The position numbers and the translations under genes were made by a program. From Zestosphaera tikiterensis (GTDB taxonomy: Archaea > Thermoproteota > Thermoprotei_A > Sulfolobales > NBVN01), in the NCBI GenBank assembly GCA_003056265.1, contig NBVN01000004.1:270001-302000 (forward strand): 32,000 nucleotides of DNA. The letters are read 5' to 3'. Of the stretch, positions 3 to 21,730 are shown one piece after another. Within the stretch, counting starts at the first letter, position 1, and every line of letters begins with the position of its first letter. Under the pieces are notes generated by a model. It had not been told where the DNA came from, searched no databases, and was given only the letters and a program-made list of their open reading frames with translations.

Positions 3-362
3 AAGAGAGTATCCCTCGTTGATGAGAGGGGTAGGGTCAGACCCGCTAGAAAAATAACTAACGTTTGGGAGATCAGAGACTTCGGGGAGTATGAGGAGGT
101 TGCTAGGTGGGACCCCGCTAGGAATAGGTTCGAGCTTAAGTTAGGGAGGAGTTTAGTCCTTCAGAAGATTTCAGACTTGACTGGAAAGCCTGTCGAGGCT
201 TTAATGGATGAGTTAGCTTTAAGGAAAGCAGTTCTTGAGTGGTTAGTGGCTTCTAAGAAGACTGCCTATAGGGATGTAGCGACTTACATTCAGAAGTACT
301 ACCTAAACCCGAAGAAGACTTTAGAGGAGTTGGGTGTGGCTCATGCCTTCACTACGGCGTAG
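3..362 (+). CDS. 3' end (cut by window edge) of a FlaI/PilB/VirB11-family type IV pilus/archaellum assembly ATPase
   Basis: Frame 3 is open from base 3 to TAG 360-362; the ORF track shows only the last 61 aa, starting at an internal TTG at 177. The tail ...RNRFELKLGRSLVLQKISDLTGKPVEALMDELALRKAVLEWLV... matches the pattern I associate with the C-terminus of archaeal FlaI-type ATPases. It overlaps the FlaJ/TadC-like gene, its usual partner, by 29 nt. Confidence 0.6.
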   Translation, partial: KRVSLVDERGRVRPARKITNVWEIRDFGEYEEVARWDPARNRFELKLGRSLVLQKISDLTGKPVEALMDELALRKAVLEWLVASKKTAYRDVATYIQKYYLNPKKTLEELGVAHAFTTA

Positions 363-2175
363 GAAGAAGGGTAAGGAACCTAAAGCTGGTGAAGTTAGGG
401 AAGACCTTAAGAAGGTTGCGAAGCCTTGGGTTAAAGGACCTACGTTAGACGAGATCTTCACAGCTTTATCTCTAACGTTGTTTGAATCCTTAGGTAGGTC
501 TTTAGCTAAGACTTTCGAGTTGGATAAAGCATTACTTAAAGCTGGTTTAAACGTCCACCCAACTATATACGCGGCTAAGACTTTAACGTTTACTGTTTTA
601 GCCGCTATACTGTCGTTACTTCCAACAGCTGCGTTCATAGTTTTGATTCCAGCTAACATCATAGTTAAGGTTGTGTTGGTGGTTTTCGCGGCTGTAGTTC
701 CTATCATGGTTTTTGCTTTAAGGCTTTCCTACCCGGCTTTAATAGCTTCAGATAGGAAGTCTGGGGTTGAGAACGAGCTCCCGTTCTTCATGGCTTACGC
801 GTCAACCATGGTTAAAGCCGGTGTTAGCTTAGATAAGATTATTGAGAGGGTTGCCGAGCTTAAGGTGTTTAAAGCTTTAAGGGATGAGGCTAGGAGGGTA
901 GTCACTAGGGTTAGGATGTTTGGCGACGACCCTGTCTCGGCGTTGGAGTACGTGGCTTCAAACCACCCAAGCACTAAGTTTAGGGACGTTATGTTGGGTT
1001 ACACAACGACTTTAAGGAGTGGTGGTGACGTAGTCCACTATATGGAGGTTAGGACTAGGGAGTTGTTTGAGGCTAGGATGGTTGAGACTAGGTTAATTAC
1101 TGAAAGGCTTGCTTCATTTCTAGAGCTTTACATAGTTTTAGGCGTGATTATGTCCGTAACGGTCTTCGTGTTCTTCGCTGTTTCCGGAACGCTTTCGGCG
1201 GTGTCCGCCGGGAGGACTACGGGTGTTGTTAGGGTTGATATAACTATGCCTTCACTATATAACTTCCTAGTCCTGCCTACCCTAGGGTTGGCGGTCTTAC
1301 TAATGATTCACTACTCCCAACCTAAAACCCCCGTTAAGGTTATGGAGCCTTACTACACTTTAATACCTTTAATACCTGTTGCTGTGTTAGCTTTCTACAT
1401 AACTTTAGCGATTACCGGAGGGTTAGGTGTGTTCAGAGGTGTTTTAGGTATTTCTGAGGTTAGGTCTTTAATAATAGCTAGTACCGTAGCTACATTACTT
1501 ACTTCAGTGCCTCCATGGCTTGTCTATAGGGGAGTTATGAAAGGGCATAAGGGGTTGATTAGCTCTACAGCTGATTTCCTAAGGGACTTAAGCGAGGTTA
1601 GGAAGACTGGATTAAGCCCTGAGAAATGTTTGATATCCCTATCTACGAGAGACTATAGGAACTTAACGCCTATAGTTAGTAAGGCTGGAGCTGCTTTATC
1701 GATAGGCTTAAGCCTTGAGGAATCCTTAAGGAGGGTTATTAAAGGCGTTAAAGAATGGTTCGTCATAGCTATCTTCAGATTCTTAACGGACTCCATAGTG
1801 GTTGGCGGCGGATCCCCCGAAATAGTTGATGCTTTAGCTAGATTCACTCAAAGCTTAAGCGAGTTGGAGGAGGAGATGAGGAGGAGGTTAAAAGCTTACG
1901 TATTCCTACCGTACTTCGGCACGGTAATGCTCGCATCAACACCTATAATGATTATAAACTTACTAGCCACGGCAGGCGGCGCAAACCCCGAAGCCTTAGC
2001 ACCGTTAATAGCTGTGTTAGGCGCTGGCAGCATGATAAACGCATACATAATGGGTTTAGTTGCTGGGAAATCCGCCGAGATGAGCATAGCTTCAGGTTTT
2101 AAACACGCTGTCGTAATGGTAGCTTTAACTACGGCAACCACGTTAATCACTATGTACTTCTATAAGTTAATTTAA
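334..2175 (+). CDS. FlaJ/TadC/PilC-like polytopic membrane platform protein of a type IV pilus-like system (T2SS-F domains)
   Basis: 613-aa ORF with many hydrophobic spans and two soluble T2SS-F-like segments (ELPFFMAYASTMVKAGVSLDKIIERVAELK... and ADFLRDLSEVRKTGLSPEKCLISL...). Translationally coupled to the upstream ATPase tail. Confidence 0.85.
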   Translation: MWLMPSLRRRKKGKEPKAGEVREDLKKVAKPWVKGPTLDEIFTALSLTLFESLGRSLAKTFELDKALLKAGLNVHPTIYAAKTLTFTVLAAILSLLPTAAFIVLIPANIIVKVVLVVFAAVVPIMVFALRLSYPALIASDRKSGVENELPFFMAYASTMVKAGVSLDKIIERVAELKVFKALRDEARRVVTRVRMFGDDPVSALEYVASNHPSTKFRDVMLGYTTTLRSGGDVVHYMEVRTRELFEARMVETRLITERLASFLELYIVLGVIMSVTVFVFFAVSGTLSAVSAGRTTGVVRVDITMPSLYNFLVLPTLGLAVLLMIHYSQPKTPVKVMEPYYTLIPLIPVAVLAFYITLAITGGLGVFRGVLGISEVRSLIIASTVATLLTSVPPWLVYRGVMKGHKGLISSTADFLRDLSEVRKTGLSPEKCLISLSTRDYRNLTPIVSKAGAALSIGLSLEESLRRVIKGVKEWFVIAIFRFLTDSIVVGGGSPEIVDALARFTQSLSELEEEMRRRLKAYVFLPYFGTVMLASTPIMIINLLATAGGANPEALAPLIAVLGAGSMINAYIMGLVAGKSAEMSIASGFKHAVVMVALTTATTLITMYFYKLI

Positions 2176-3008: not shown

Positions 3009-3420
3009 CCTTCCACTACTACACTAAACACTAACACTAATATATGCAGGTAAAACTTTAAAAACTTTAAACACACTAAATTTGACTACGTCAAACTCTA
3101 GAGAAATCCCGTCACGAAGCCAATCTTTTACTATAATATCGAATATCGTGAGTAGTTCTACTAAGAGTTCCTTAAAGACGTCTAGAACTTTCTTTAAACT
3201 AACTCTTAAGTAAGCCTTAGCTTCCCCTCTTTCGCTGGAGTTAATGCCTACTCTTACATGTGATTAGATTTTCTAGTTTGATAAGCCTATCTTAGAAAGT
3301 CTAGTTGGGTTAGGTTTTCTAATTCCTCTGTGAGTGTAAATTTACACTTAAGTATGGATTAACTACACCACAAGAAAGTAATAACATGTTGTTACGGGTA
3401 GGAGTGGGAGAAAAAGAACC

Positions 3421-4353: not shown

Positions 4354-4629
4354 GTTTTATCCTCCAATAATCTATAGGAGTTCCCATATATTTTGTCAAC
4401 CAACTGAACAGGATATAAGGGACTCCTGCTGTAAATAGGTTAATAAGATAGGGCAAACCTCCTACTACCCTTAGTAAATTAGCTTTCCTAAAGGGTTATC
4501 GAGTTCTGTGAGCACTTTTAAGCTTTGATACCTGAATGTCGGGTAAAACAGAACTTCAAGTTAGCTTCGATAAGCTTATCAAAGAAGTGAAGGTGTCTCC
4601 ATTTATAGCATTATCCATTTGAGAGAACT

Positions 4630-5148
4630 ACTCAGAGTAATACTCAGAGTAATGAGATTTCCTACGTAGAGCAATTAAAAAGTATTCACCTAAGACAATT
4701 AGAAAATGAAGAATTTTCAGGCCTCATGGAGATTGGGAATTCGTCAAATAAAAAAATTACGGAATGGGATAATGGGAAATTTAGGTGGGATAATGGGAAG
4801 GTGAATGAAATTCACGCATCGATTATCCCGCTGTTGATTATCCCATTATCCCGGGATATCCCGGGAAGACCACGCGTAGCTTCCCATTATCCCATTATCC
4901 CACTCTCAAAAACAATATGGGATCCCTAGCGGGATAAACGGGAAAACTGGGAAACCCCGATCAAACAGCATGAGTTTTACATACTACTTCATCCTACTAG
5001 AAACTAACCCTAGAAACTAGGATCCTCTTCAAACATCCTCCCTAATCCTCCCTAACACACTCTTCAACCAACCCTAACGTAAACCTAGAACGTTTAATCG
5101 GGGCTTGCTCTTTAACTGCGGATTTACACTCTGATAAGCTTATCAAAG
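4630..5148. repeat. Left arm of a long imperfect inverted repeat (iteron-rich, ~519 bp)
   Basis: Reverse-complement match to 9528-10017. Perfect blocks: 4957-4985 = rc(9686-9714) and 5031-5057 = rc(9614-9640). Both outer tips carry the tandem 12-mer ACTCAGAGTAAT (4630-4653). GAATTCGT at 4737-4744 matches rc 9903-9910, and CCTCATGGA at 4722-4730 matches rc 9917-9925. Contains about a dozen GGGAT/ATCCC cores and the 16-bp palindrome CCCGGGATATCCCGGG (4850-4865). Confidence 0.9.
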
Positions 5149-5150
5149 CT

Positions 5151-5283
5151 AAGTTTTCTAAGGACTTGAAGATCTTAACAGAGATTATCAATCAGAGAAA
5201 TAGCTAGGAAGGTAGGGCTTAGTAAATCAGCAGTTCATAAAAGACTAGGGAAAATACTTAAAAAGGAAGGGATACACGTTTAA
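5151..5283 (+). pseudogene. Remnant of a small HTH (Lrp/AsnC- or TrmB-like) gene, frame-disrupted, no start codon
   Basis: Frame containing 5179-5283 reads QRLSIREIARKVGLSKSAVHKRLGKILKKEGIHV*, a classic helix-turn-helix. It is preceded by TAA at 5176-5178 and has no start. The adjacent frame (5151-5207) reads KFSKDLKILTEIINQRNS*, which resembles the helix before such an HTH. The two pieces overlap on the same bases in different frames. Confidence 0.35.
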
Positions 5284-5352
5284 GTAACGATTAACCACGC
5301 TGCTTACAGATTAACTTAAGTAGTTAGTTTTACGGGGATGTTTTAGGTATAT

Positions 5353-5362
5353 CTTTTATATT
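5353..5362 (+). promoter_or_regulatory. TATA box (CTTTTATATT) for the AbrB-like/zinc-ribbon/RM operon; predicts a leaderless transcript
   Basis: The T/A box is centred near 5357, about 26 nt upstream of the TTG start at 5384. This is the usual archaeal TATA-to-TSS spacing. Confidence 0.4.
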
Positions 5363-5383
5363 CTAGGGCAATAACCTAGTATA

Positions 5384-5578
5384 TTGGGGGATGCCTTGGG
5401 TTGTGTTGATTTAAGTAGGTGTGTTAAGGTTAAGATATTAAAGTTAAGGAAGAAGCAGAAGGGGGTTGACGTTAGAATACCTAAGGAAGTCGTGGAGAAG
5501 ATGAATTTAAAAGGCAAGGAGAAGGTTGAGGTATACGTAGATTATGAAAACGGACTCATAATATATAAACCGTTTTAA
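5384..5578 (+). CDS. SpoVT/AbrB-like DNA-binding protein (antitoxin/controller-like)
   Basis: The C-terminal 45 aa, VDVRIPKEVVEKMNLKGKEKVEVYVDYENGLIIYKPF, fit the AbrB swapped-hairpin pattern (v.iPkev.e.l.lk.Gd.v.v....g.iii.p). The only in-frame starts are TTG 5384 or TTG 5396. Confidence 0.6.
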   Translation: MGDALGCVDLSRCVKVKILKLRKKQKGVDVRIPKEVVEKMNLKGKEKVEVYVDYENGLIIYKPF

Positions 5579-5588
5579 GGTGGGAAAC

Positions 5589-5786
5589 ATGGTTAAATGC
5601 CCTTACTGTGGCTACGAATCAAACATAAACGACTTTAAACTTCTTAGAAATCCATGGAGATATAGGTTCTACGAGGTTAGGAGGCTTGAATGCCCTAAAT
5701 GCCGTAAAGTATTCAACTACTACTACGAAGTAACATCTGAAGGTAAGGAAGTTAAGTTCATGATTAGAGTAAAGCCTAGAGGGTGA
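5589..5786 (+). CDS. small zinc-ribbon protein (CPYC...CPKC)
   Basis: Two CxxC pairs (CPYCGYES ... CPKCRKVF). ATG 5589 is preceded by GGTGG (5579-5583). The ORF track starts at GTG 5580. Lies 10 nt after the AbrB-like stop, so probably the same operon. Confidence 0.6.
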   Translation: MVKCPYCGYESNINDFKLLRNPWRYRFYEVRRLECPKCRKVFNYYYEVTSEGKEVKFMIRVKPRG

Positions 5787-5882
5787 TGAAGCGTCCGAGT
5801 TTGTGATTGGGATGAGGTTTGGGGCTGTGAGTATGTTAAAGGTGATGATGAACAGATAAGAAAGGCTTTGAAGGTGTGAAAG

Positions 5883-7427
5883 TTGAGTAAGGTAGGTCTG
5901 GAATTTACTCAAATAAGCTTTGCTTCAGAGGTAAAGGATTGGATAAATGAAATCATTAAAAACGAAAGATTAAGGTTTGAATACGCTGATATTGAAATAA
6001 AGGACCCACGTCGGAAAAGGGCTGATGTAATCCTATGGGAGAAGAGGAGAGAGAAGAAACCAGCACTTTTAATTGAGATATGGGATCCAAGCACCCCTCC
6101 TTGGGAGGATGCGTTAGATTCCGCCTTAGCTAAAGCATGGAAAAACAATATCCCTTATTTTGTTGTATGGAATTTAACGCACTTCTACTGTTGGGATACT
6201 TTTAAAGAGGGTGAAGTGATAGATAAGCTTTGGTGGCCTCATGCAGGCGTAAGCGAAGTAGTAACTAAGGCTTTAACGTATGAAGACGCTATTTTAAAGT
6301 ATAGTGAAGGGATTAAAAACTACATTAGAAATTTCCTTAAGGAGTTTGAAGAGGTTTATTACGGTATTAAGGCTAAGCCTTTACTTGGGATTGATGAAAG
6401 ATTCATCTATAGGTTAAGAGGCACGATTCACGCACTATCGATACCTGTTTTTGAGGAGTTAAAGAAGAGAACGCAGGAAGACATCCGGTTTAAGAAGGAG
6501 CTTATCAAATACTTTAAGGAACAAGGATGGACGTTTAAAGGAACGGACGAGGATTTCGAAAGAGTAGCAAGGCAATACATCTACTTACTTACCAACAAAT
6601 TACTTTTCTACAACGTTCTCCGTACAATCCCCTCATATAGAGAACTACCTAAGATCGAGATCCCCAAGGATGTCACAACCGGTGAAAAGCTAAGGGATAT
6701 ACTAAATTCTTACTTTGAACGTGCCTTTAAGACAACCGGAAATTACGAGACAATCCTACTTACAGATTTCTTAGACTCCATAATCCCGCCGGATGGTGTG
6801 GTTGAAGGTCTTAAGGAATTTATCCGTAAGATAAGCGATTACGACTTTTCAAAGATTACATATGAAATCTTAGGAAACATATTTCAAAGGCTAATACCGG
6901 AGGAGGAAAGGCATAAACTCGGTCAGTACTTCACGAGGTCTGATGTAGTTGACCTCATAGTAGGTTTCTGTGTAAGAAATGCCGACGATAAAGTGTTGGA
7001 TGGTAGTTGTGGTGCGGGGACGTTTCTAGTGCGGTCTTACGTGAGGAAAAAGCTACTTAACCCTAGTAAAAAGCATAAGGAGCTTATTAAGGAACTATTC
7101 GGGATTGACATCGCGAAGTTCCCAGCTCATCTCTCAATCATAAACTTGGCTAGTAGAAACCTATCAGAGGTTGAGAACTACCCTAACATCATTCATAAGG
7201 ATTTCTTCGACGTAAGCCCAAGTGGGAAATATCCCTTAACTGATGTAAAGCATAATGAAGTAAAGCATAAAGTTGAAACTTTAGGTAAGAAAGAGTTCTT
7301 TATTGAAATACCAGAGTCTTTTGATGCTGTAGTGATGAATCCACCATACACTAGGCAGGAGGAATTGGAGGACATACTTGAGGAAGAAAGAGCAAAGCGT
7401 ATGATGTATGCATTAAGGATTGGATAG
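5883..7427 (+). CDS. Type IIG restriction-modification enzyme, fragment 1 of 3 (N-terminal nuclease-like region + gamma-class N6-adenine methyltransferase motifs I-IV)
   Basis: TTG start with AGGTG 6 nt upstream. Contains GQYFTRSDVVDLIV, motif I (VLDGSCGAGTFLV) and motif IV (VMNPPYTRQEE). The N-terminus has a PD-(D/E)xK-like layout (RADVILWEK...ALLIEIWD). The frame ends at TAG 7425-7427, shortly after NPPY, but the protein continues in another frame. Confidence 0.85.
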   Translation: MSKVGLEFTQISFASEVKDWINEIIKNERLRFEYADIEIKDPRRKRADVILWEKRREKKPALLIEIWDPSTPPWEDALDSALAKAWKNNIPYFVVWNLTHFYCWDTFKEGEVIDKLWWPHAGVSEVVTKALTYEDAILKYSEGIKNYIRNFLKEFEEVYYGIKAKPLLGIDERFIYRLRGTIHALSIPVFEELKKRTQEDIRFKKELIKYFKEQGWTFKGTDEDFERVARQYIYLLTNKLLFYNVLRTIPSYRELPKIEIPKDVTTGEKLRDILNSYFERAFKTTGNYETILLTDFLDSIIPPDGVVEGLKEFIRKISDYDFSKITYEILGNIFQRLIPEEERHKLGQYFTRSDVVDLIVGFCVRNADDKVLDGSCGAGTFLVRSYVRKKLLNPSKKHKELIKELFGIDIAKFPAHLSIINLASRNLSEVENYPNIIHKDFFDVSPSGKYPLTDVKHNEVKHKVETLGKKEFFIEIPESFDAVVMNPPYTRQEELEDILEEERAKRMMYALRIG

Positions 7428-8323
7428 ACCTTAGAAGCGATAAATACAGGAAAAACAACCCTCCAAAGCTTAGCAAGAGGTCAAGTATCTACGTTTACTT
7501 CTTCATCCACGGAGCTAGGTTCTTAAAAGAAGGCGGTAGGTTGGGGTTGATTACTTCAAACTCTTGGCTGGACGTTGATTATGGCGGAGACTTGCAAAGA
7601 TTCTTTCTTGAAAACTTCAAGATAATCGCTGTTATTGAAAGTAAGGTAGAGAGGTGGTTTGAAGACGCCGATATCAACACAGCGATAACGATACTTGAGA
7701 GATGTAGCAATTCAGAAGAAAGAAATAACAACTTAGTCAAATTCGTCCAGCTTAAGAAACCTCTATCTGAATTCATACCTCCAACAAACGATGAAAACGA
7801 AAGGTGGAGAAACGTTGATAAATTAGTTAACTTCATAGAATCTAAAAACCAATACTTCGAAGATGAAAACATAAGGATATTTGTAAAGAAGCAGGAGGAG
7901 CTATGGGAAGAAGGTTACGATGAAGAGAAAAAAGAATACGTTGGAACAAAGTGGGGCAAATATATTAGGGCTCCAGAAATTTTTTACAAGGTCTTGACTA
8001 CCAAAAAAGATAAATTTGTGCCTCTTAAGAAACTAGCAAGAATCGGTCGAGGTTTAAGGACAGGTTTCAATTCCTTCTTTTACTTAAGTGCTCAGAAAGC
8101 TGAAAAACTCGGAATTATGAACTTTACACGTCCACTAATTAAATCTCCAAAGGATAGTGAGTACACTCTGTTAAGTAAAGCTAAATTGCGAAATAGAATT
8201 TTTACAGTAAATGAGGAATTAAATTCTCTTATAAGGACAAAAGCTTATGACTATATAAAAATGGGCGAGAGAAAAGGGGTGCCTCAAAGACGAGGTAAAA
8301 AAAGAAAAATGGTGGTCCTTTGA
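7382..8323 (+). CDS. Type IIG RM enzyme, fragment 2 of 3 (methyltransferase motifs after NPPY, start of the target-recognition region)
   Basis: Frame 2 is open from 7382 (TGA at 7379-7381). It reads ...KSKAYDVCIKDWIDLRSDKYRKNNPPKLSKRSSIYVYFFIHGARFLKEGGRLGLITSNSWLDVDYGGDLQRFFLENFKIIAVIE, the expected continuation of Eco57I-like enzymes. The ORF track starts at TTG 7541. Confidence 0.8.
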   Translation, partial: GRKSKAYDVCIKDWIDLRSDKYRKNNPPKLSKRSSIYVYFFIHGARFLKEGGRLGLITSNSWLDVDYGGDLQRFFLENFKIIAVIESKVERWFEDADINTAITILERCSNSEERNNNLVKFVQLKKPLSEFIPPTNDENERWRNVDKLVNFIESKNQYFEDENIRIFVKKQEELWEEGYDEEKKEYVGTKWGKYIRAPEIFYKVLTTKKDKFVPLKKLARIGRGLRTGFNSFFYLSAQKAEKLGIMNFTRPLIKSPKDSEYTLLSKAKLRNRIFTVNEELNSLIRTKAYDYIKMGERKGVPQRRGKKRKMVVL

Positions 8324-9293
8324 GGAGGAATGTATAAGGGCTGATTTATTTATTCCAATCCAATTGTGGGAAACATATAAAATATTTCTTAATGATACAA
8401 AAGAACACATACTGTTTGATCAGCAATTGAGCGGTCTTAAATTTAAGGATTTTAAGACAGCAAAGCTTGTTTGTGCAGTATTAACCTCTACCCTAGGCAA
8501 CTTATTCTTGGAGATTGTAGGAAGAAGTCAGCTTGGTCAGGGGTCATTACAACTAGCGACTATAGATCTCCATAGCCTTCCTTGCTTGATTATAGCAGAG
8601 GAAAAGATAATAGAAAAAATTTTCAAGGTTTTTGAAAAACTATGTGAAAGAAAGATTTTAACTATCTATGAAGAGATCGGTGCAAGTTCGCCAGAAGGAG
8701 TTTCCCTAAATAAAGTAAAGCCTGATAGAAGGGAATTAGATAAAATCATAATGGGTGAAATCTTAGGCTTAACTGAGGAAGAGCAGTTAGAGGTTTATAG
8801 AGCAGTTGTGGATCTTGTTAGGTCGAGGCTTGAAAGAGCTAAAAGCGTTCAAAAGAAGAAGGTTAAGGAGCTGAATGTTGACGATCTTGTGGATTCTGTT
8901 TTAAAAGAATTAGAGGAAGTTCACGGTATAAAGGCTAAAGAATTCCCGGAAGAGTACATAGGGAGGTGTGAGTATAAAGTTGTTGAAGTTCCAAAGGGGT
9001 CTGAAGTTGAGGTTGGTTATGATTTAAGAGGTCCGTACGTTCGAATAGATAATGAAAAGGTTAGATGTTCTTCAATTTACGAAGCAAGGTTCATAGGATA
9101 TGCTGTTTTAGCTGGTAAGACCAAGATAATGGTACCTAAAGATGAAAACATATTGAAAAAAGCTGTAGAAGAAAGAAGGAAGTTCCTAGAGGAAGCAAGG
9201 ATGAAGATAGAGGAATTTATTAATGAAACGATAACGGATAAAAAGCTAAGAGAGGATGTAAAGTTTAAAGCATTTAAGAAGCTAGGCATGTAA
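8259..9293 (+). CDS. Type IIG RM enzyme, fragment 3 of 3 (C-terminal target-recognition region)
   Basis: Frame 3 is open from 8259. From about 8310 it reads WWSFEEECIRADLFIPIQLWETYKIFLNDTKEHILFDQQL...AVLTSTLGNLFLEIVGRSQLGQGSLQLATIDLHSLP, the WY.l / LNS...e..gr..lG.G motif block of this enzyme family. The ORF track starts at TTG 8364. Confidence 0.8.
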   Translation, partial: KWAREKGCLKDEVKKEKWWSFEEECIRADLFIPIQLWETYKIFLNDTKEHILFDQQLSGLKFKDFKTAKLVCAVLTSTLGNLFLEIVGRSQLGQGSLQLATIDLHSLPCLIIAEEKIIEKIFKVFEKLCERKILTIYEEIGASSPEGVSLNKVKPDRRELDKIIMGEILGLTEEEQLEVYRAVVDLVRSRLERAKSVQKKKVKELNVDDLVDSVLKELEEVHGIKAKEFPEEYIGRCEYKVVEVPKGSEVEVGYDLRGPYVRIDNEKVRCSSIYEARFIGYAVLAGKTKIMVPKDENILKKAVEERRKFLEEARMKIEEFINETITDKKLREDVKFKAFKKLGM

Positions 9294-9527
9294 CACTATT
9301 TATGAGAACCCTAGACGCTATAAAGTTTTCTAATTAAGAGCATATATGTGAATACCTGCAAATCTCATAAAGAGGGAAGACTTTAAAAACATTATCACTA
9401 TAGAGAGTAAATTTACTCTTAAAACACATTCCAACCTACACTAAAACCTCAGAAAAGCTAATTAAAATAAAAAACTAGATTTTCAGAGTTTATCAAGAAC
9501 TGAAAATTCACTCAACCAGCTTTCTTA

Positions 9528-10017
9528 GTTAAGCTCATCAAAGTGTAAATTTACACTCAAGAACAAGCCCCGACTAAACACTCCAGGTCTGCATTAGGGT
9601 TAGTTGGGGAGGATGTTAGGGAGGATTAGGGAGGATGTTTGAGGAGGATCTAGTTTTCGAGATTAGCTTTCTAGCAGGATGAAGCAGTATGTAAAACTCA
9701 TGCTGTTTGATCGGTTTTGTCCCGGTGTGTCCCACCGTCCACGCGTCTGTCCCAAGCTGTTTTAGAAAGTGGGACAGTGGGACAATGGGACACCACGCGT
9801 GGTGTCCCGGGACAATGGGACAATCGCCGCGTGAATTTCTTTCGCTGTCCCATTGTCCCAATCAAATGTCTCATTTGTCCCAAACTAAAAGATTTTCAAT
9901 TCACGAATTCGCGGTTTCCATGAGGTTCGAACGGCTTTCAGCATTTAATTGCCTTTGCCGAATGCTTTTTAATTGTCCAATGTTCATATATATTGTACTC
10001 TGAGTATTACTCTGAGT
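9528..10017. repeat. Right arm of the long imperfect inverted repeat (iteron-rich, ~490 bp)
   Basis: Reverse complement of 4630-5148 (see the left arm). Contains about a dozen GGGAC/GTCCC cores, the perfect 22-bp palindrome GGGACACCACGCGTGGTGTCCC (9787-9808), four GGAGGAT copies (9608-9649), the 16-bp palindrome AGTGTAAATTTACACT (9542-9557) and the 12-mer pair at 9994-10017. Confidence 0.9.
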
Positions 10018-10060: not shown

Positions 10061-10375
10061 TTGGTGTTAAGAGTGAGAGGCGAGGGAAAGACAACCATCG
10101 AGGTATCGCTTGAGACTAGGGAACTGCTTAGGAGGGTCTCCCAGAGGGTTGGGATGACTTACGACGAGGTTCTTAAGATGCTCCTAGAATCATTCGAAAA
10201 TCTGCTGAATTGCAGAGTTAGGGTTGATGAGGTCGTAGGCGACGTTATCTTGGTGTGCGACGTCGGTGAGGAGGAGCCTGAGGAGATAAGCATAGACAGG
10301 AGGGAGTATAGAAGGCTTAGGAAGGTTTTGAAGTTCCTACTGAAGCCTAAGGAATCGCTCCACCCTACCTACTAG
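10061..10375 (+). CDS. putative ribbon-helix-helix (CopG/Arc-like) DNA-binding protein
   Basis: The N-terminus KTTIEVSLETRELLRRVSQRVGMTYDEVLKMLLESF fits a beta-strand/helix/helix RHH layout. The C-terminal half is acidic then basic. The start is ambiguous (TTG 10061, GTG 10064 or GTG 10073). Sits immediately outside the right arm. Confidence 0.5.
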   Translation: MVLRVRGEGKTTIEVSLETRELLRRVSQRVGMTYDEVLKMLLESFENLLNCRVRVDEVVGDVILVCDVGEEEPEEISIDRREYRRLRKVLKFLLKPKESLHPTY

Positions 10376-10788: not shown

Positions 10789-11382
10789 GTGATGGTGTTC
10801 ATGTATAACATACGTGGGGGGCAGGCGAACTTATTTGTGGTAGTTATGTTGGTAGGTCTTGTTTTAGTTCTTGGTGTAAGTCTTGCGGGTTATTTCTCTA
10901 CCTACGTAGCTAGCGTTAGTTCTGAAAGCAGTCTTAAAAACGCAATACAGTATGAGATAGCTAATACGGTCGTATATAAGGAGTTCGATAGCGGTACGGC
11001 TGTATGGTTGGGTTTGATAAGGATAGATGGGTCTAGCACTACATACTACATGCTCGTTATAAACACCTCCTCCTGCGTATGGCAGAGGATCTCCGAAGAG
11101 AATATCGTGAGCAACCTACTAAGCAACGGTTTAGAGGGTGTTAGGGCTGGAAGATCCGTAGATTTAAACAGCGTGTATATATTAGATCCAGACGGAAACC
11201 ACATCCCCATAAAGACATACTATAGGGGGTCATCACCTATAACGATATATGAAATCTTCGTTGAAGCGGGCGGTAAGCCTAAACTCATAGGACCGATACC
11301 GCATGGGGGAGGGTGTGTTGAGGTCGTGTTTTTAACCCTCGCAAACAATAACTATTATGAGGTAGGTAAGGTTTATGTATAG
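10789..11382 (+). CDS. pilin-like protein with class III (prepilin-type) signal peptide
   Basis: The N-terminus ...MYNIRGGQANLFVVVMLVGLVLVLGVSLAGYF has a short basic leader, a G-Q-A cleavage-type motif and a hydrophobic helix. The likely true start is ATG 10801. Overlaps the next pilin-like gene by 8 nt. Confidence 0.65.
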   Translation: MMVFMYNIRGGQANLFVVVMLVGLVLVLGVSLAGYFSTYVASVSSESSLKNAIQYEIANTVVYKEFDSGTAVWLGLIRIDGSSTTYYMLVINTSSCVWQRISEENIVSNLLSNGLEGVRAGRSVDLNSVYILDPDGNHIPIKTYYRGSSPITIYEIFVEAGGKPKLIGPIPHGGGCVEVVFLTLANNNYYEVGKVYV

Positions 11383-12556
11383 AGTAAAACCTTCAAGAGG
11401 TCAGGCGGAGATAATAGGTGCTACCATAGCTTTAGGGTTGCTAGTCCTAGCTATAGCGTCTATGTTAGCGATAATGCAGAGAACATCAGCAACATCAACA
11501 ACAAACTTCGCAAAAAGAGTAAACTTCGAGAATGAAAGACTTTCAGAGAAGCTAAGCGTTACATACAACTCAACAAGTGGGGAATGCATCCTAAGAAACT
11601 ACGGCTCACTAGACACGGTAATCATAAGAATATGGAACAACAACCAACACTACGACAGTAAATACGGCGATCACAACCTTCCAATAGTTTTAAAACCTAA
11701 CGAAGAAGAAAGATTTACCTTCAGCGAAACACCACAATACATAGTTACGTCAAGAGGAAACGTAATACCGTTTAAAAACATGTGTGAAGAATTAAAACAA
11801 CGTCTAACAACCCCCCCATCTGTTGGCGAAAGCTTTATAAAGTCTGAGGATGTATTGACGGGAGAAGCGAATTTTAAACCAACAAAAGATAGAGCCATAG
11901 TATGCTCTATTGAGATTGGTAATACAAGACCCACGTGTTATGTAGCATATAACTTCACTAATTACGGTAAAATATGGCGTCGATACAATCCTGTTAACGG
12001 TTGGGAAAGTAACATTAACGCTAGACTTACTTCCGACACCGACCGTGATGGTGTTAACGAACTAACGCTTGTAGACGATGCTTGGAATGAGATCAATTTT
12101 ACAAGAGGTCAGAGCCCTACTATAAGGGTAACGTTCGTTAATTCTACGATTATAGATGACGATACAGACGTTATCTACGTTACGTATAGACTTGCCGTTA
12201 ATGCTATAGTAAGTAACGCTGCTGCACCGTTCGGGTTTAGTTTAAGTAGTTTTGTAGAATTAACGACAACCAATACTGGTGCGACATTCCCAGCTGCGGT
12301 TAGCTTTATCTCTATACCTAGGTCTGAAAAAGTAGGGGGTTCTTATAACGTAATTGCTATCCTTGAAGCAAGTGTTGCCATACCGAGGAAGGCATATTCG
12401 TCGTTAAGTGGTTTATTACAGCCCGGGATCTATAATTTAACCATAACAGTTTTGATTAATAATCCACAACAAGGTTCTGCGGATTTTGCTAAGGCTGTAC
12501 GTCTTGAGAGTGTAACGATAACGGGTGCTGAAATAAAATGGTATGAAAAGATATAG
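11375..12556 (+). CDS. large pilin-like protein (393 aa) with class III signal peptide
   Basis: MYRVKPSRGQAEIIGATIALGLLVLAIASMLAI carries the RGQAEIIG motif typical of archaeal flagellin/pilin N-terminal domains. Followed by a long beta-rich extracellular region. Confidence 0.7.
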   Translation: MYRVKPSRGQAEIIGATIALGLLVLAIASMLAIMQRTSATSTTNFAKRVNFENERLSEKLSVTYNSTSGECILRNYGSLDTVIIRIWNNNQHYDSKYGDHNLPIVLKPNEEERFTFSETPQYIVTSRGNVIPFKNMCEELKQRLTTPPSVGESFIKSEDVLTGEANFKPTKDRAIVCSIEIGNTRPTCYVAYNFTNYGKIWRRYNPVNGWESNINARLTSDTDRDGVNELTLVDDAWNEINFTRGQSPTIRVTFVNSTIIDDDTDVIYVTYRLAVNAIVSNAAAPFGFSLSSFVELTTTNTGATFPAAVSFISIPRSEKVGGSYNVIAILEASVAIPRKAYSSLSGLLQPGIYNLTITVLINNPQQGSADFAKAVRLESVTITGAEIKWYEKI

Positions 12557-20670: not shown

Positions 20671-21060
20671 TTAACGTATTCCAACCTCATTAAGGACCAC
20701 CGTAGCAACTTCATAAAGTCCTTTAACCACGTCTTCACCGTAGGTTCTGGGTAAGTACCTCGCACTTATGTATGCGTCGTTCATAACTTCCACAGCATAT
20801 TTATGTTTTTCATATAGAAGCCATAGGTTAGGTTTAACTTGCTTAACCTCCTCGAATAACTCTCTTAAATTACGTGTGTGTGGGTAATGACCTAACTCCA
20901 CAGCTAGTACGTACTTTAAAGCCAGCTGAACTGCTTGCTCACAATGAAACGCTGCTAACTCATACATACCGGATTTTAAATCGTCTTCAACAGCATGTAG
21001 AAAGTCCAGCGCACGTTGTTTAAGTGCTTCAACGTCCTTTCTAGACATCCTACGCACCAA
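20671..21060 (-). CDS. HEPN domain protein (solitary; no adjacent nucleotidyltransferase gene)
   Basis: The 129-aa helical protein fits the HEPN (PF05168-type) pattern: ALDFLHAVEDDLKSGMYELAAFHCEQAVQLALKYVL...HYPHTRNLRELF...DAYISARY. Confidence 0.7.
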   Translation of the reverse strand: MVRRMSRKDVEALKQRALDFLHAVEDDLKSGMYELAAFHCEQAVQLALKYVLAVELGHYPHTRNLRELFEEVKQVKPNLWLLYEKHKYAVEVMNDAYISARYLPRTYGEDVVKGLYEVATVVLNEVGIR

Positions 21061-21160: not shown

Positions 21161-21730
21161 TTGGAGGTTAAGCCCGTAATTAAAATTGAGAATATAGTGG
21201 CTACGGTGACCTTAGATCAGAACTTAGACCTTCACGCCATCGCTAAGTCGGTAGCTAACATTGAATACGATCCTGAAGAGTTTCCAGGCCTGATTTACAG
21301 GCTTAGTAAGCCTAGGTTAACCGCCTTAATATTCAACTCAGGTAAGATGGTGGTTACGGGGGCTAAAAGCACTGCTCAACTTATCGACGGTTTTAAAAAG
21401 ATCATTAGAAGCTTCACTAAACATGGGATAATAATCGTTGGGAAGCCTAAAATCCAGATTCAGAATATAGTTGCTTCAGCTAACTTAGGTGTTGAAGTAG
21501 ATTTGGAGAAGGCGGCGTTCCTACTGAAGAACGTTATGTACGAACCCGAGCAGTTCCCCGGCTTAATACATAGGATGGACGAACCTAAGGTAGTGTTGTT
21601 AATATTCAGTAGTGGTAAGATGGTCATTACAGGAGCTAAAAGTGAGGAGGACGTGAATTCAGCCGTATACAACATATTCAACCAACTTAAAGAGCTTGAA
21701 TGCGTTAGGGAAATAACGACAACGTTTTAA
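21161..21730 (+). CDS. tbp: TATA-box binding protein
   Basis: Two direct repeats: [20 protein letters not shown]...[14 protein letters not shown]...[16 protein letters not shown] and [20 protein letters not shown]...[13 protein letters not shown]...[16 protein letters not shown]. Confidence 0.95.

Follow-up and report, generated by a model that had tools for sequence, protein, structure and literature searches.

How does a restriction-modification (RM) gene come to lie between two half-kilobase inverted repeats in an archaeal chromosome, and what could have placed it there? The question is raised by positions 4630-10017 of a 32,000-nucleotide (nt) stretch of Zestosphaera tikiterensis (contig NBVN01000004.1, positions 270,001 to 302,000 of the forward strand; the whole stretch is hereafter called the window), a 5.4-kb segment that ends in two inverted arms and carries a Type IIG RM gene in its core. 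Zestosphaera is a crenarchaeon of the Desulfurococcaceae (PMC11467010). Our answer, to which we assign a probability of roughly 45% and which is drawn from sequence comparison, is that the segment may be a strain-variable defence slot flanked by two old inverted repeat copies that serve as recombination substrates. The slot would sit in the chromosome, inside a type-IV-pilus-like gene cluster, between two inverted copies, old and diverged, of a ~520-nt repeat that is non-coding and lineage-specific, and would hold a truncated helix-turn-helix (HTH) remnant, a conserved promoter, an AbrB-like/zinc-ribbon pair and an AT-rich Type IIG gene inactivated by two frameshifts. The arms, together with ~40-nt elements at their inner ends (PB, for palindrome and box), would be the substrates for recombination; exchange at PB and at perfect blocks within the arms could replace the cargo, flip the intervening segment and patch one arm from another, while the dyad-symmetric iteron arrays of the arms would bind a sequence-specific DNA-binding protein not encoded intact in the segment.

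The two arms are related over their whole length. In a MAFFT alignment, the left arm and the reverse complement of the right arm agree at 361 of 492 ungapped columns (73% identity), and a blastn search of the window with either arm returned the other arm as the sole match (524 nt, E 6e-72). A repeat search of the window recovered the same relationship as a set of co-linear inverted pairs, namely 4957-5112/9559-9714 (156 nt, 83%), 4771-4834/9812-9875, 4861-4922/9750-9811 and 4630-4651/9996-10017 (22 nt, 100%). Beyond both ends of each arm homology is lost sharply, to 41-43% identity. The arms and their main landmarks are:

4630-5148, plus strand: left arm, a non-coding repeat with many iterons and palindromes; its alignment partner is 9528-10017 in reverse complement.
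9528-10017, minus strand: right arm, which repeat search, alignment and blastn show to be the left arm in inverted form.
4630-4653, plus strand: outer tip with two tandem copies of ACTCAGAGTAAT; right counterpart at 9996-10017; a 22-nt perfect inverted pair by repeat search, with the tandem 12-mers confirmed by pattern search.
4957-4985, plus strand: 29-nt perfect block with its partner at 9686-9714; two metagenome contigs discussed below, L001 and L009, end at its inner edge.
5031-5057, plus strand: 27-nt perfect block CAAACATCCTCCCTAATCCTCCCTAAC with its partner at 9614-9640; the arm of L009 switches from right-like to left-like across it.

Going inwards from its outer tip, an arm starts with the tandem 12-mers and several short boxes that are conserved; iterons and palindromes then form a dyad-symmetric array, which is followed by the 29-nt block, the CCTCCC-rich 27-nt block and PB. 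Conservation is concentrated in islands that are perfect or nearly so (22 of 24 alignment columns at the tip, 29 of 29 at 4957-4985 and 27 of 27 at 5031-5057), and identity between them is 53-76%. In simulations at a background identity of 0.69, a perfect run of at least 27 nt had a probability of ~0.005 and three runs of at least 22 nt arose in 0 of 20,000 simulations; since the islands exceed chance, they reflect either constraint or recent gene conversion. Within the 32-kb window the 29-nt block occurs twice (0 expected) and GGGAYAATGGGA nine times, always within the arms (0.17 expected).

Hints at recombination come from a sister strain, represented by contigs L009 and L010, whose flank on the side of the LEA_2 gene is 94-97% identical to that of the window. 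LEA_2 is followed there by a solo box, a DUF4352 gene, a gene for 63 amino acids (aa), the promoter, the HTH remnant, PB and the inner 165 nt of an arm, at which point the contig ends. Relative to LEA_2, the module of arm, HTH remnant and promoter is inverted with respect to the window, other cargo is present, and LEA_2 has no arm beside it. The L009 arm itself is a mosaic, made up block by block of sequence like that of one or the other window arm, with 8 runs against 15.7 expected (permutation p = 0.002): its informative sites comprise five right-like positions, a mixed stretch, 12 left-like, 4 right-like and 7 left-like positions, and it is across the 27-nt perfect block that the main change, from right-like to left-like, takes place. 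A mosaic arm together with a flipped module would be the expected product of a crossover between inverted arms, yet L009 differs in its cargo as well and so does not represent a simple flip isomer. Besides, two independent assemblies break at the inner edge of the 29-nt block, with L001 ending at 4985 and L009 starting at the equivalent of 4984. Logan contigs are built with a k-mer size of 31; because a 29-nt repeat is too short to branch such a graph, these breaks hint at variant or recombinant molecules in the samples. We infer that recombination at the PB and arm sites generated the present arrangement. Recombinant junctions are predicted to carry the k-mer CCCGATCAAACAGCATGAGTTTTACATACTG, which joins the left outer part to the right inner part, and its reciprocal AACCGATCAAACAGCATGAGTTTTACATACTA.

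PB is an element of ~40 nt in which a palindrome of the form GAGTGTAAATTTACAC is followed by the box TGATAAGCTTATCAAAG. Complete or partial copies in and around the segment are:

5118-5148, plus strand: PB at the inner end of the left arm (palindrome and box ..ATTTACACTCTGATAAGCTTATCAAAG), abutting the truncated HTH gene.
9524-9560, minus strand: PB at the inner end of the right arm (GAGTGTAAATTTACACTTTGATGAGCTTAAC), found by repeat search.
4565-4584, no strand: solo box CTTCGATAAGCTTATCAAAG, 45 nt outside the left tip and a perfect 16-nt direct repeat of 5133-5148.
3278-3350, no strand: box GATAAGCCTATC with palindrome GAGTGTAAATTTACAC, downstream of LEA_2.
9294-9523, no strand: spacer between the 3' end of the RM gene and the right PB, with a solo palindrome GAGAGTAAATTTACTCTT at 9403-9420.

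The two inner elements form a 27-nt inverted pair (5122-5148 and 9524-9550, 85% complementary). Every synteny break that we observed carries a PB or a box. The synteny of L009 with the window breaks at the solo box 4565-4584, which (as window 4569-4584) lies at the same 216-nt distance from LEA_2 in L009, where no arm adjoins it; the end of the PB box at 5148 is the exact junction of the left arm with the truncated HTH gene; and downstream of LEA_2, L009 carries at 3155-3355 a 190-nt insertion that contains a full PB and is itself flanked by palindrome repeats. The inner end of the right arm is also a PB copy, and the comparator contigs do not span that junction.

In contrast to the conserved islands, the iterons differ between the arms in a systematic manner. 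They are strictly arm-specific at co-linear positions: GGGATAA occurs eight times in the left arm and not in the right, GGGACAA/GGGACAG nine times in the right arm and not in the left. The two arrays are:

4763-4950, no strand: left iteron array with dyad symmetry; GGGATAA eight times in both orientations, palindromes CCCGGGATATCCCGGG and GGGAAG..CTTCCC; fold of the single-strand DNA z = -3.6.
9720-9885, no strand: right iteron array; GGGACAA/GGGACAG nine times, with a 22-nt perfect palindrome GGGACACCACGCGTGGTGTCCC; fold z = -6.7.

As these z-scores indicate, both arrays fold far better as single strands than their shuffles do, and palindromes persist although both of their halves have changed (GGGAAG..CTTCCC in the left arm, GGGACACC..GGTGTCCC in the right). 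A concerted change in all iteron copies of a repeat that has diverged by 27% argues that the motifs are functional binding sites or have been homogenised within each arm, and we infer that a protein binds them. In size and internal complexity the arms are unusual. An earlier note on this DNA, made from the letters alone, had described the two segments as imperfect reverse complements with shared 29-nt and 27-nt perfect blocks, tandem 12-mers at both outer tips and long, motif-rich, palindrome-bearing ends; alignment, pattern search, iteron counts, dyad symmetry and fold scores bear out this description throughout.

A related array was seen outside the arms. On contigs L016 (1920-2055) and L019 (210-350), GTGGACA(A/G)T iterons form an array with dyad symmetry upstream of intact genes for a 165-aa HTH protein; they represent a third version of the arm iteron motif. 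The recognition helix of the HTH domain, SKSAVHKRL, is identical in the window remnant and the intact genes, although the iterons differ.

Several other identities for the arms were considered and rejected. They are not protein-coding, having no intact shared open reading frame (ORF) and no 3-nt periodicity among their substitutions. Nor do they correspond to a known RNA, as no Rfam 15 family matched at gathering score anywhere in the window, and a permissive threshold yielded a single match at chance level (9443-9491, E 0.93), which lies in the spacer beside the right arm. The idea that they derive by decay from the 5' half of the intact HTH gene and the region upstream of it was dropped as well: their alignment to L019 1-762 is at shuffle level, tblastn for the HTH gene recovered its C-terminal HTH domain alone, and all that the arms have in common with the region upstream of the gene in L019 is the iteron motif family G(G/T)GGA(C/T)A(A/G)T. 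A CRISPR leader, finally, is not a match either, with PB being the sole part shared with a leader-like region of contig L017.

What lies between the arms looks foreign and partly dead. The G+C content of the core is 37.2%, while the other 4.4-kb stretches of the window all lie between 39.3 and 45.4%, and this upholds the AT-richness that the earlier note had read from spot counts. Its genes are:

5149-5283, plus strand: 5'-truncated, frame-shifted remnant of a C-terminal HTH domain; the 165-aa product of the parent gene combines a transmembrane helix, a coiled coil and an HTH.
5284-5395, plus strand: putative promoter/leader with a TATA-like TTTTATAT near 5353, upstream of the AbrB-like gene; 87-91% identity to L009, L017, L018 and L019.
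5396-5578, plus strand: AbrB/MazE-fold gene of ~60 aa (Pfam MazE_antitoxin, E 1e-8); 81-83% aa identity in L017-L019.
5589-5786, plus strand: zinc-ribbon gene of 65 aa with zinc-ribbon Pfam matches; product identical to PUA32395.1 of a Zestosphaera tikiterensis metagenome-assembled genome (MAG).
5883-9293, plus strand: Type IIG RM gene, a fusion of nuclease, methyltransferase and target recognition domain, spread over three ORFs with frameshifts near 7405 and 8310.

When reconstructed, the HTH remnant matches Pfam HTH_AsnC/HTH_24 (E ~3e-6) and is 80-86% identical to residues 121-165 of the homologue P0173; the gene is intact in L016, L019 and L020. The assignment of 5284-5395 as a promoter is tentative, and the counterpart of this region precedes other cargo in L009. 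Neighbouring proteins of the window share 90% clusters with PUA32398.1 and PUA32400.1. The exact protein match led us to reject a Thermococcales or Asgard host, to which the G+C content and the 'Freyarchaeota' label of a LEA_2 homologue had pointed.

The Type IIG gene changes from frame 0 to frame 2 near 7405 and back to frame 0 near 8310, the second shift lying beside a run of seven A. Once corrected, the 1136-aa product aligns over 100% of its length to intact homologues of 1125-1190 aa, with up to 70% identity. It has HSDR_N_2, N6_Mtase and Eco57I matches and an NPPY motif, its homologues carry M_Eco57I_C, and PADLOC calls it REase_MTase_IIG; as expected of this type, nuclease, gamma-class N6-adenine methyltransferase and C-terminal specificity regions are joined in one polypeptide. 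The two frameshifts leave no intact Type IIG reading frame in the window, and an independent Logan assembly calls the identical C-terminal fragment. Unless the shifts are assembly errors or the gene is phase-variable, its product is probably non-functional. Because of its low G+C content and a best homologue of only 70% identity, the gene looks horizontally acquired and now decaying. Thus, the AbrB-like, zinc-ribbon and Type IIG genes that the earlier note had named as the sole coding content are confirmed by Pfam and PADLOC, but it had overlooked that the last of these is split by two frameshifts and that an HTH remnant precedes them at 5149-5283.

The same small genes stand in front of other RM enzymes. 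A head module with ~90% nt conservation comprises window 5284-5786, L017 1-421, L018 1-409 and L019 763-1363. On contig L019, a GTGGACA iteron array comes first, then the 165-aa HTH gene in intact form, with the promoter, AbrB and zinc ribbon behind it (window 5186-5782 is matched at 90% nt identity). The next gene is again of Type IIG, but it shares only 24% identity with that of the window, over methyltransferase motifs; no arm sequence was found within the 353 nt of this contig upstream of the HTH gene. In L017 and L018, the AbrB/zinc-ribbon head is followed by a third, unrelated Type IIG gene. The comparison of L017-L019 suggests that the promoter and the AbrB/zinc-ribbon pair form a conserved, reusable head before interchangeable Type IIG genes, and that the arms are not an obligatory part of this cassette. 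On L016 and L020, malic enzyme and fumarase genes surround a DUF4352-like gene, the iteron array and an intact copy of the HTH gene. The closest intact RM homologues (63-70% aa identity) are found on L006-L008, which were rejected as related loci, since they have unrelated contexts and no arms. A contig of the same strain, L015, starts only at window 10303.

Downstream of its Type IIG gene, L017 carries first a gene for 106 aa and then, within 4608-5876, a solo PB that lies ~150 nt upstream of a serine-recombinase N-terminal fragment (MKAFGYVRVSQEDEN..). The fragment runs directly into a CRISPR-like array of nine repeats (24-nt repeat GTTMAAAATAAGCAAGACTAAGAG), and a second serine recombinase gene begins at the contig end. 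L017 is the only contig on which serine recombinase fragments were seen near a PB.

Further copies of the arms proved scarce. Two complete copies and one partial copy (L009) are known, and all comparators are short metagenome contigs. The earlier note had proposed that metagenomes, viruses and plasmids be searched for the arm blocks; we did so with exact words, i.e. 20-23-mers of both conserved blocks, and obtained no true match in IMG/VR, the JGI metagenome collection or 185,579 species-representative (GTDB) genomes. Exact-block matches in Acidoferrales (L002-L005) and in L014 were rejected as chance. Similarly, blastn with an arm and its inner flank gave no match in PLSDB plasmids or INPHARED phages, and protein-guided scans of IMG/VR were negative. 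Therefore, the arms are not a widespread or high-copy family within the collections searched. A target-site duplication was not found, as the flanks ..GAGAACT/ACTCAG and ACTCTGAGT/GTGCGG have no common direct repeat and show 41% identity outside the tips. Neither was an empty site seen in the relatives examined, where the closest, L009 and L010, hold other genes and one arm at the site and the more distant L011-L013 have unrelated neighbours. As to genes that could mobilise the segment, Pfam, NCBIfam and PADLOC scans found no integrase, transposase, Rep, Orc or Cas gene in the segment or the larger window ORFs, in line with what the earlier note had said of the cassette, and no Orc1/Cdc6, helicase or ParA/ParB gene among the ORFs scanned; recombinases are likewise absent from the scanned ORFs, and tblastn of the 32-kb window with a serine-recombinase N-terminus returned chance-level matches only. 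The segment would not, on our reading, be a self-contained transposon.

It could still be a non-autonomous one, a possibility raised in the earlier note, in which the arms would be long multi-site terminal inverted repeats (TIRs) and either the whole 5.4-kb unit, or each arm in the manner of a miniature inverted-repeat transposable element (MITE), would have been mobilised in trans together with its RM cargo. The sharp outer boundary with perfect tandem 12-mers at both tips is the strongest argument for this, and the internal binding-site-like iterons and conserved islands, a cargo that varies between strains, the compositionally foreign core and a perfect 16-nt direct box repeat flanking the left arm plus 45 nt all fit, as does the precedent of bacterial RM units that lie within inverted repeats without a transposase (PMC2853133). 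However, the 16-nt repeat is the recurrent PB/box motif and occupies the same place in L009, where there is no arm; in that sister strain the slot has no arm next to LEA_2 and one at its other side, within which the contig ends. Moreover, the arm pair lacks a target-site duplication, the relatives examined offered no empty site, related AbrB/zinc-ribbon/RM cassettes are armless, the conserved blocks have no further copy in three public collections, and at 27% arm divergence any mobilisation must be old. Inverted repeats do stand at both ends; overall we find the proposal weakened and rather unlikely. The earlier note had also suggested an inverted duplication of local sequence made at RM insertion, as proposed for Helicobacter and Pyrococcus RM units. 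While lower-G+C RM cargo does lie exactly between the two copies, and RM insertions are statistically associated with flanking repeats (PMC2853133), the 27% divergence of the arms against 3-6% between the strain flanks makes the duplication older than the strain split, the arm of the sister strain accompanies non-RM cargo, arm-specific iteron variants speak for long independent evolution under constraint, and other RM alleles follow the AbrB/zinc-ribbon head without arms, leaving this origin highly improbable. The same holds for another suggestion of the earlier note, in which the arms would be what is left of an origin of replication of the iteron type, or of a partition site, from a plasmid or virus that had integrated: dense iterons in both orientations around palindromes, with small DNA-binding proteins nearby (AbrB-like, zinc ribbon and the HTH remnant), would suit it, yet no Rep, Orc1/Cdc6, helicase, ParA/ParB or integrase gene is among the ORFs scanned, plasmid and phage records (PLSDB, INPHARED) and IMG/VR contigs show no similarity, intact relatives of the HTH gene reside amid housekeeping genes (L020), and the cumulative GC skew has no turn at the locus, through which it climbs. 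Beyond the iterons, nothing supports this very doubtful idea.

A programmed invertible switch would share much of its evidence with our own proposal. Here, the arms or the inner PB elements would be dedicated invertase sites, and flipping 5149-9527 would change the promoter that drives the AbrB/zinc-ribbon/RM operon or the flanking genes, resulting in phase variation. The 27-nt inverted pair formed by the inner PB elements, the opposite orientation of the arm-proximal module in L009, the mosaic third arm and the contig breaks at the 29-nt block are all compatible with such a switch, and so are the solo PB of L017, ~150 nt upstream of a serine-recombinase N-terminal fragment, and the second serine recombinase gene that follows. 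On the other hand, the 32-kb window yielded no recombinase gene, the cargo gene is already dead, with little left to regulate, and L009 differs in cargo as well as orientation and is no simple flip isomer. The earlier note's suggestion of an invertible segment, taken to include a recombining one, gains indirect support from the L009 orientation, the mosaic arm and the two assembly breaks; we consider a dedicated switch quite unlikely.

The defence slot with recombining flanks, which we prefer, has weak points of its own. Only three arm copies are available, the third being a 165-nt fragment at a contig end, and searches for copies covered the window and public collections. The evidence for recombination consists of assembled contigs, with no inversion isomer or recombinant junction directly observed, and no recombinase gene turned up in the window, either among the scanned ORFs or by tblastn with a serine-recombinase N-terminus. 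A divergence of 27% makes general homologous recombination inefficient outside the perfect 27-29-nt blocks. Furthermore, the perfect tandem 12-mer at the outermost tip has the look of a transposase or integrase terminus, which a recombination model does not predict, and L009 may have suffered secondary deletions and hence is not a clean test of the ancestral state. A bolder version of the proposal, which we hold to be unlikely, would see in arms and PB a complex recombination platform of the Desulfurococcaceae that has not been described before. PB would be the palindromic core crossover site and the ~480 nt beside it would be arm-type iterons; a dedicated binding protein would co-evolve with each copy, and a recombinase encoded in trans, possibly of the serine type, would capture, invert and exchange defence cassettes, resulting in an archaeal analogue of integrons or shufflons for RM genes.

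Known systems resemble the locus in part. In bacteria, RM genes, including a Type IIG case, have been found between imperfect inverted repeats of 26-65 bp without a linked transposase, with 8-bp target-site duplications and clean empty sites (Furuta, Abe & Kobayashi 2010, PMC2853133). The window agrees with these units in having RM genes inside imperfect inverted repeats and no linked mobility gene. However, its repeats, at ~520 bp, are ten times longer and have an internal structure with arm-specific iterons, neither a target-site duplication nor an empty site was found, and the repeat also occurs with non-RM cargo (L009). The multi-site ends of Mu and Tn7, long-TIR elements and MITEs likewise offer long ends with several short motifs, perfect outer tips and no transposase in cis, but differ from the window in their target-site duplications, in extra copies and in having a known cognate transposase, and the arm in the related strain is one-sided. 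Invertible segments of the Hin, Gin or Rci type and shufflons share with it the inverted repeats around a segment that is oppositely oriented in a sister strain, the mosaic arms and the short palindromic site at the inner boundaries, whereas no adjacent invertase was found at the window locus and its arms are far longer than hix or sfx sites. An analogy, and no more, can be drawn to lambda attP, in which a short palindromic core (compare PB) lies beside several hundred bases of protein-binding-like motifs and core copies mark the junctions of conserved and variable sequence; an integrase, a tRNA target and a direct-repeat attL/attR pair have no equivalent in the window. Lastly, controller-protein RM operons in defence islands have small DNA-binding proteins directly upstream of the RM gene, a shared promoter and RM alleles that are swapped between strains, as seen here, although the small proteins of the window are of the AbrB fold and a zinc ribbon instead of an Xre-type C protein. 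Taken together, in function the locus resembles inversion-prone, shufflon-like loci or a complex att site, membership of which fails because there is no linked recombinase and no isomers have been observed.

Among the scanned ORFs of the window, those that could be named are housekeeping or pilus-related and encode a T2SSF-like platform protein, pilin-like proteins, SHMT, MTAP, TBP and an oligopeptide ABC transporter. A type-IV-pilus/Ups-like locus seemingly surrounds the cassette (window 334-2175 and 10789-12556): one side encodes a T2SSF/UpsF-like membrane protein, and the other encodes two proteins whose N-termini resemble class III signal peptides. The ORF w104 (104 aa, 10061-10375) starts 44 nt past the right tip and has no Pfam or PADLOC family match; by eye its N-terminus is ribbon-helix-helix-like, and its operator could be formed by the tandem 12-mers. 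The assembly collection has no record of a gene for this exact product. For the LEA_2 protein in the flank, the best named homologue (P0124, 59% identity) is labelled 'Candidatus Freyarchaeota', which may reflect a mis-binned MAG contig or horizontal transfer. Farther away, a gene with a HEPN domain lies beside the TBP gene (window 20671-21060 and 21161-21730).

To our knowledge, the exchange of defence genes in hyperthermophilic Crenarchaeota is poorly understood. The present locus shows that a conserved promoter and AbrB/zinc-ribbon head is reused before three or more unrelated Type IIG enzymes, that the arm-specific iterons of a long non-coding repeat are under evident constraint, and that a short palindromic element recurs at strain-specific rearrangement junctions. 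Should the repeats and palindromes not be recombination sites, we would be left with an ordinary decaying RM insertion beside an old inverted repeat. If, however, they truly are such sites, they would provide a concrete and testable mechanism for the turnover of defence cassettes in archaea, operating without obvious transposases at the site.

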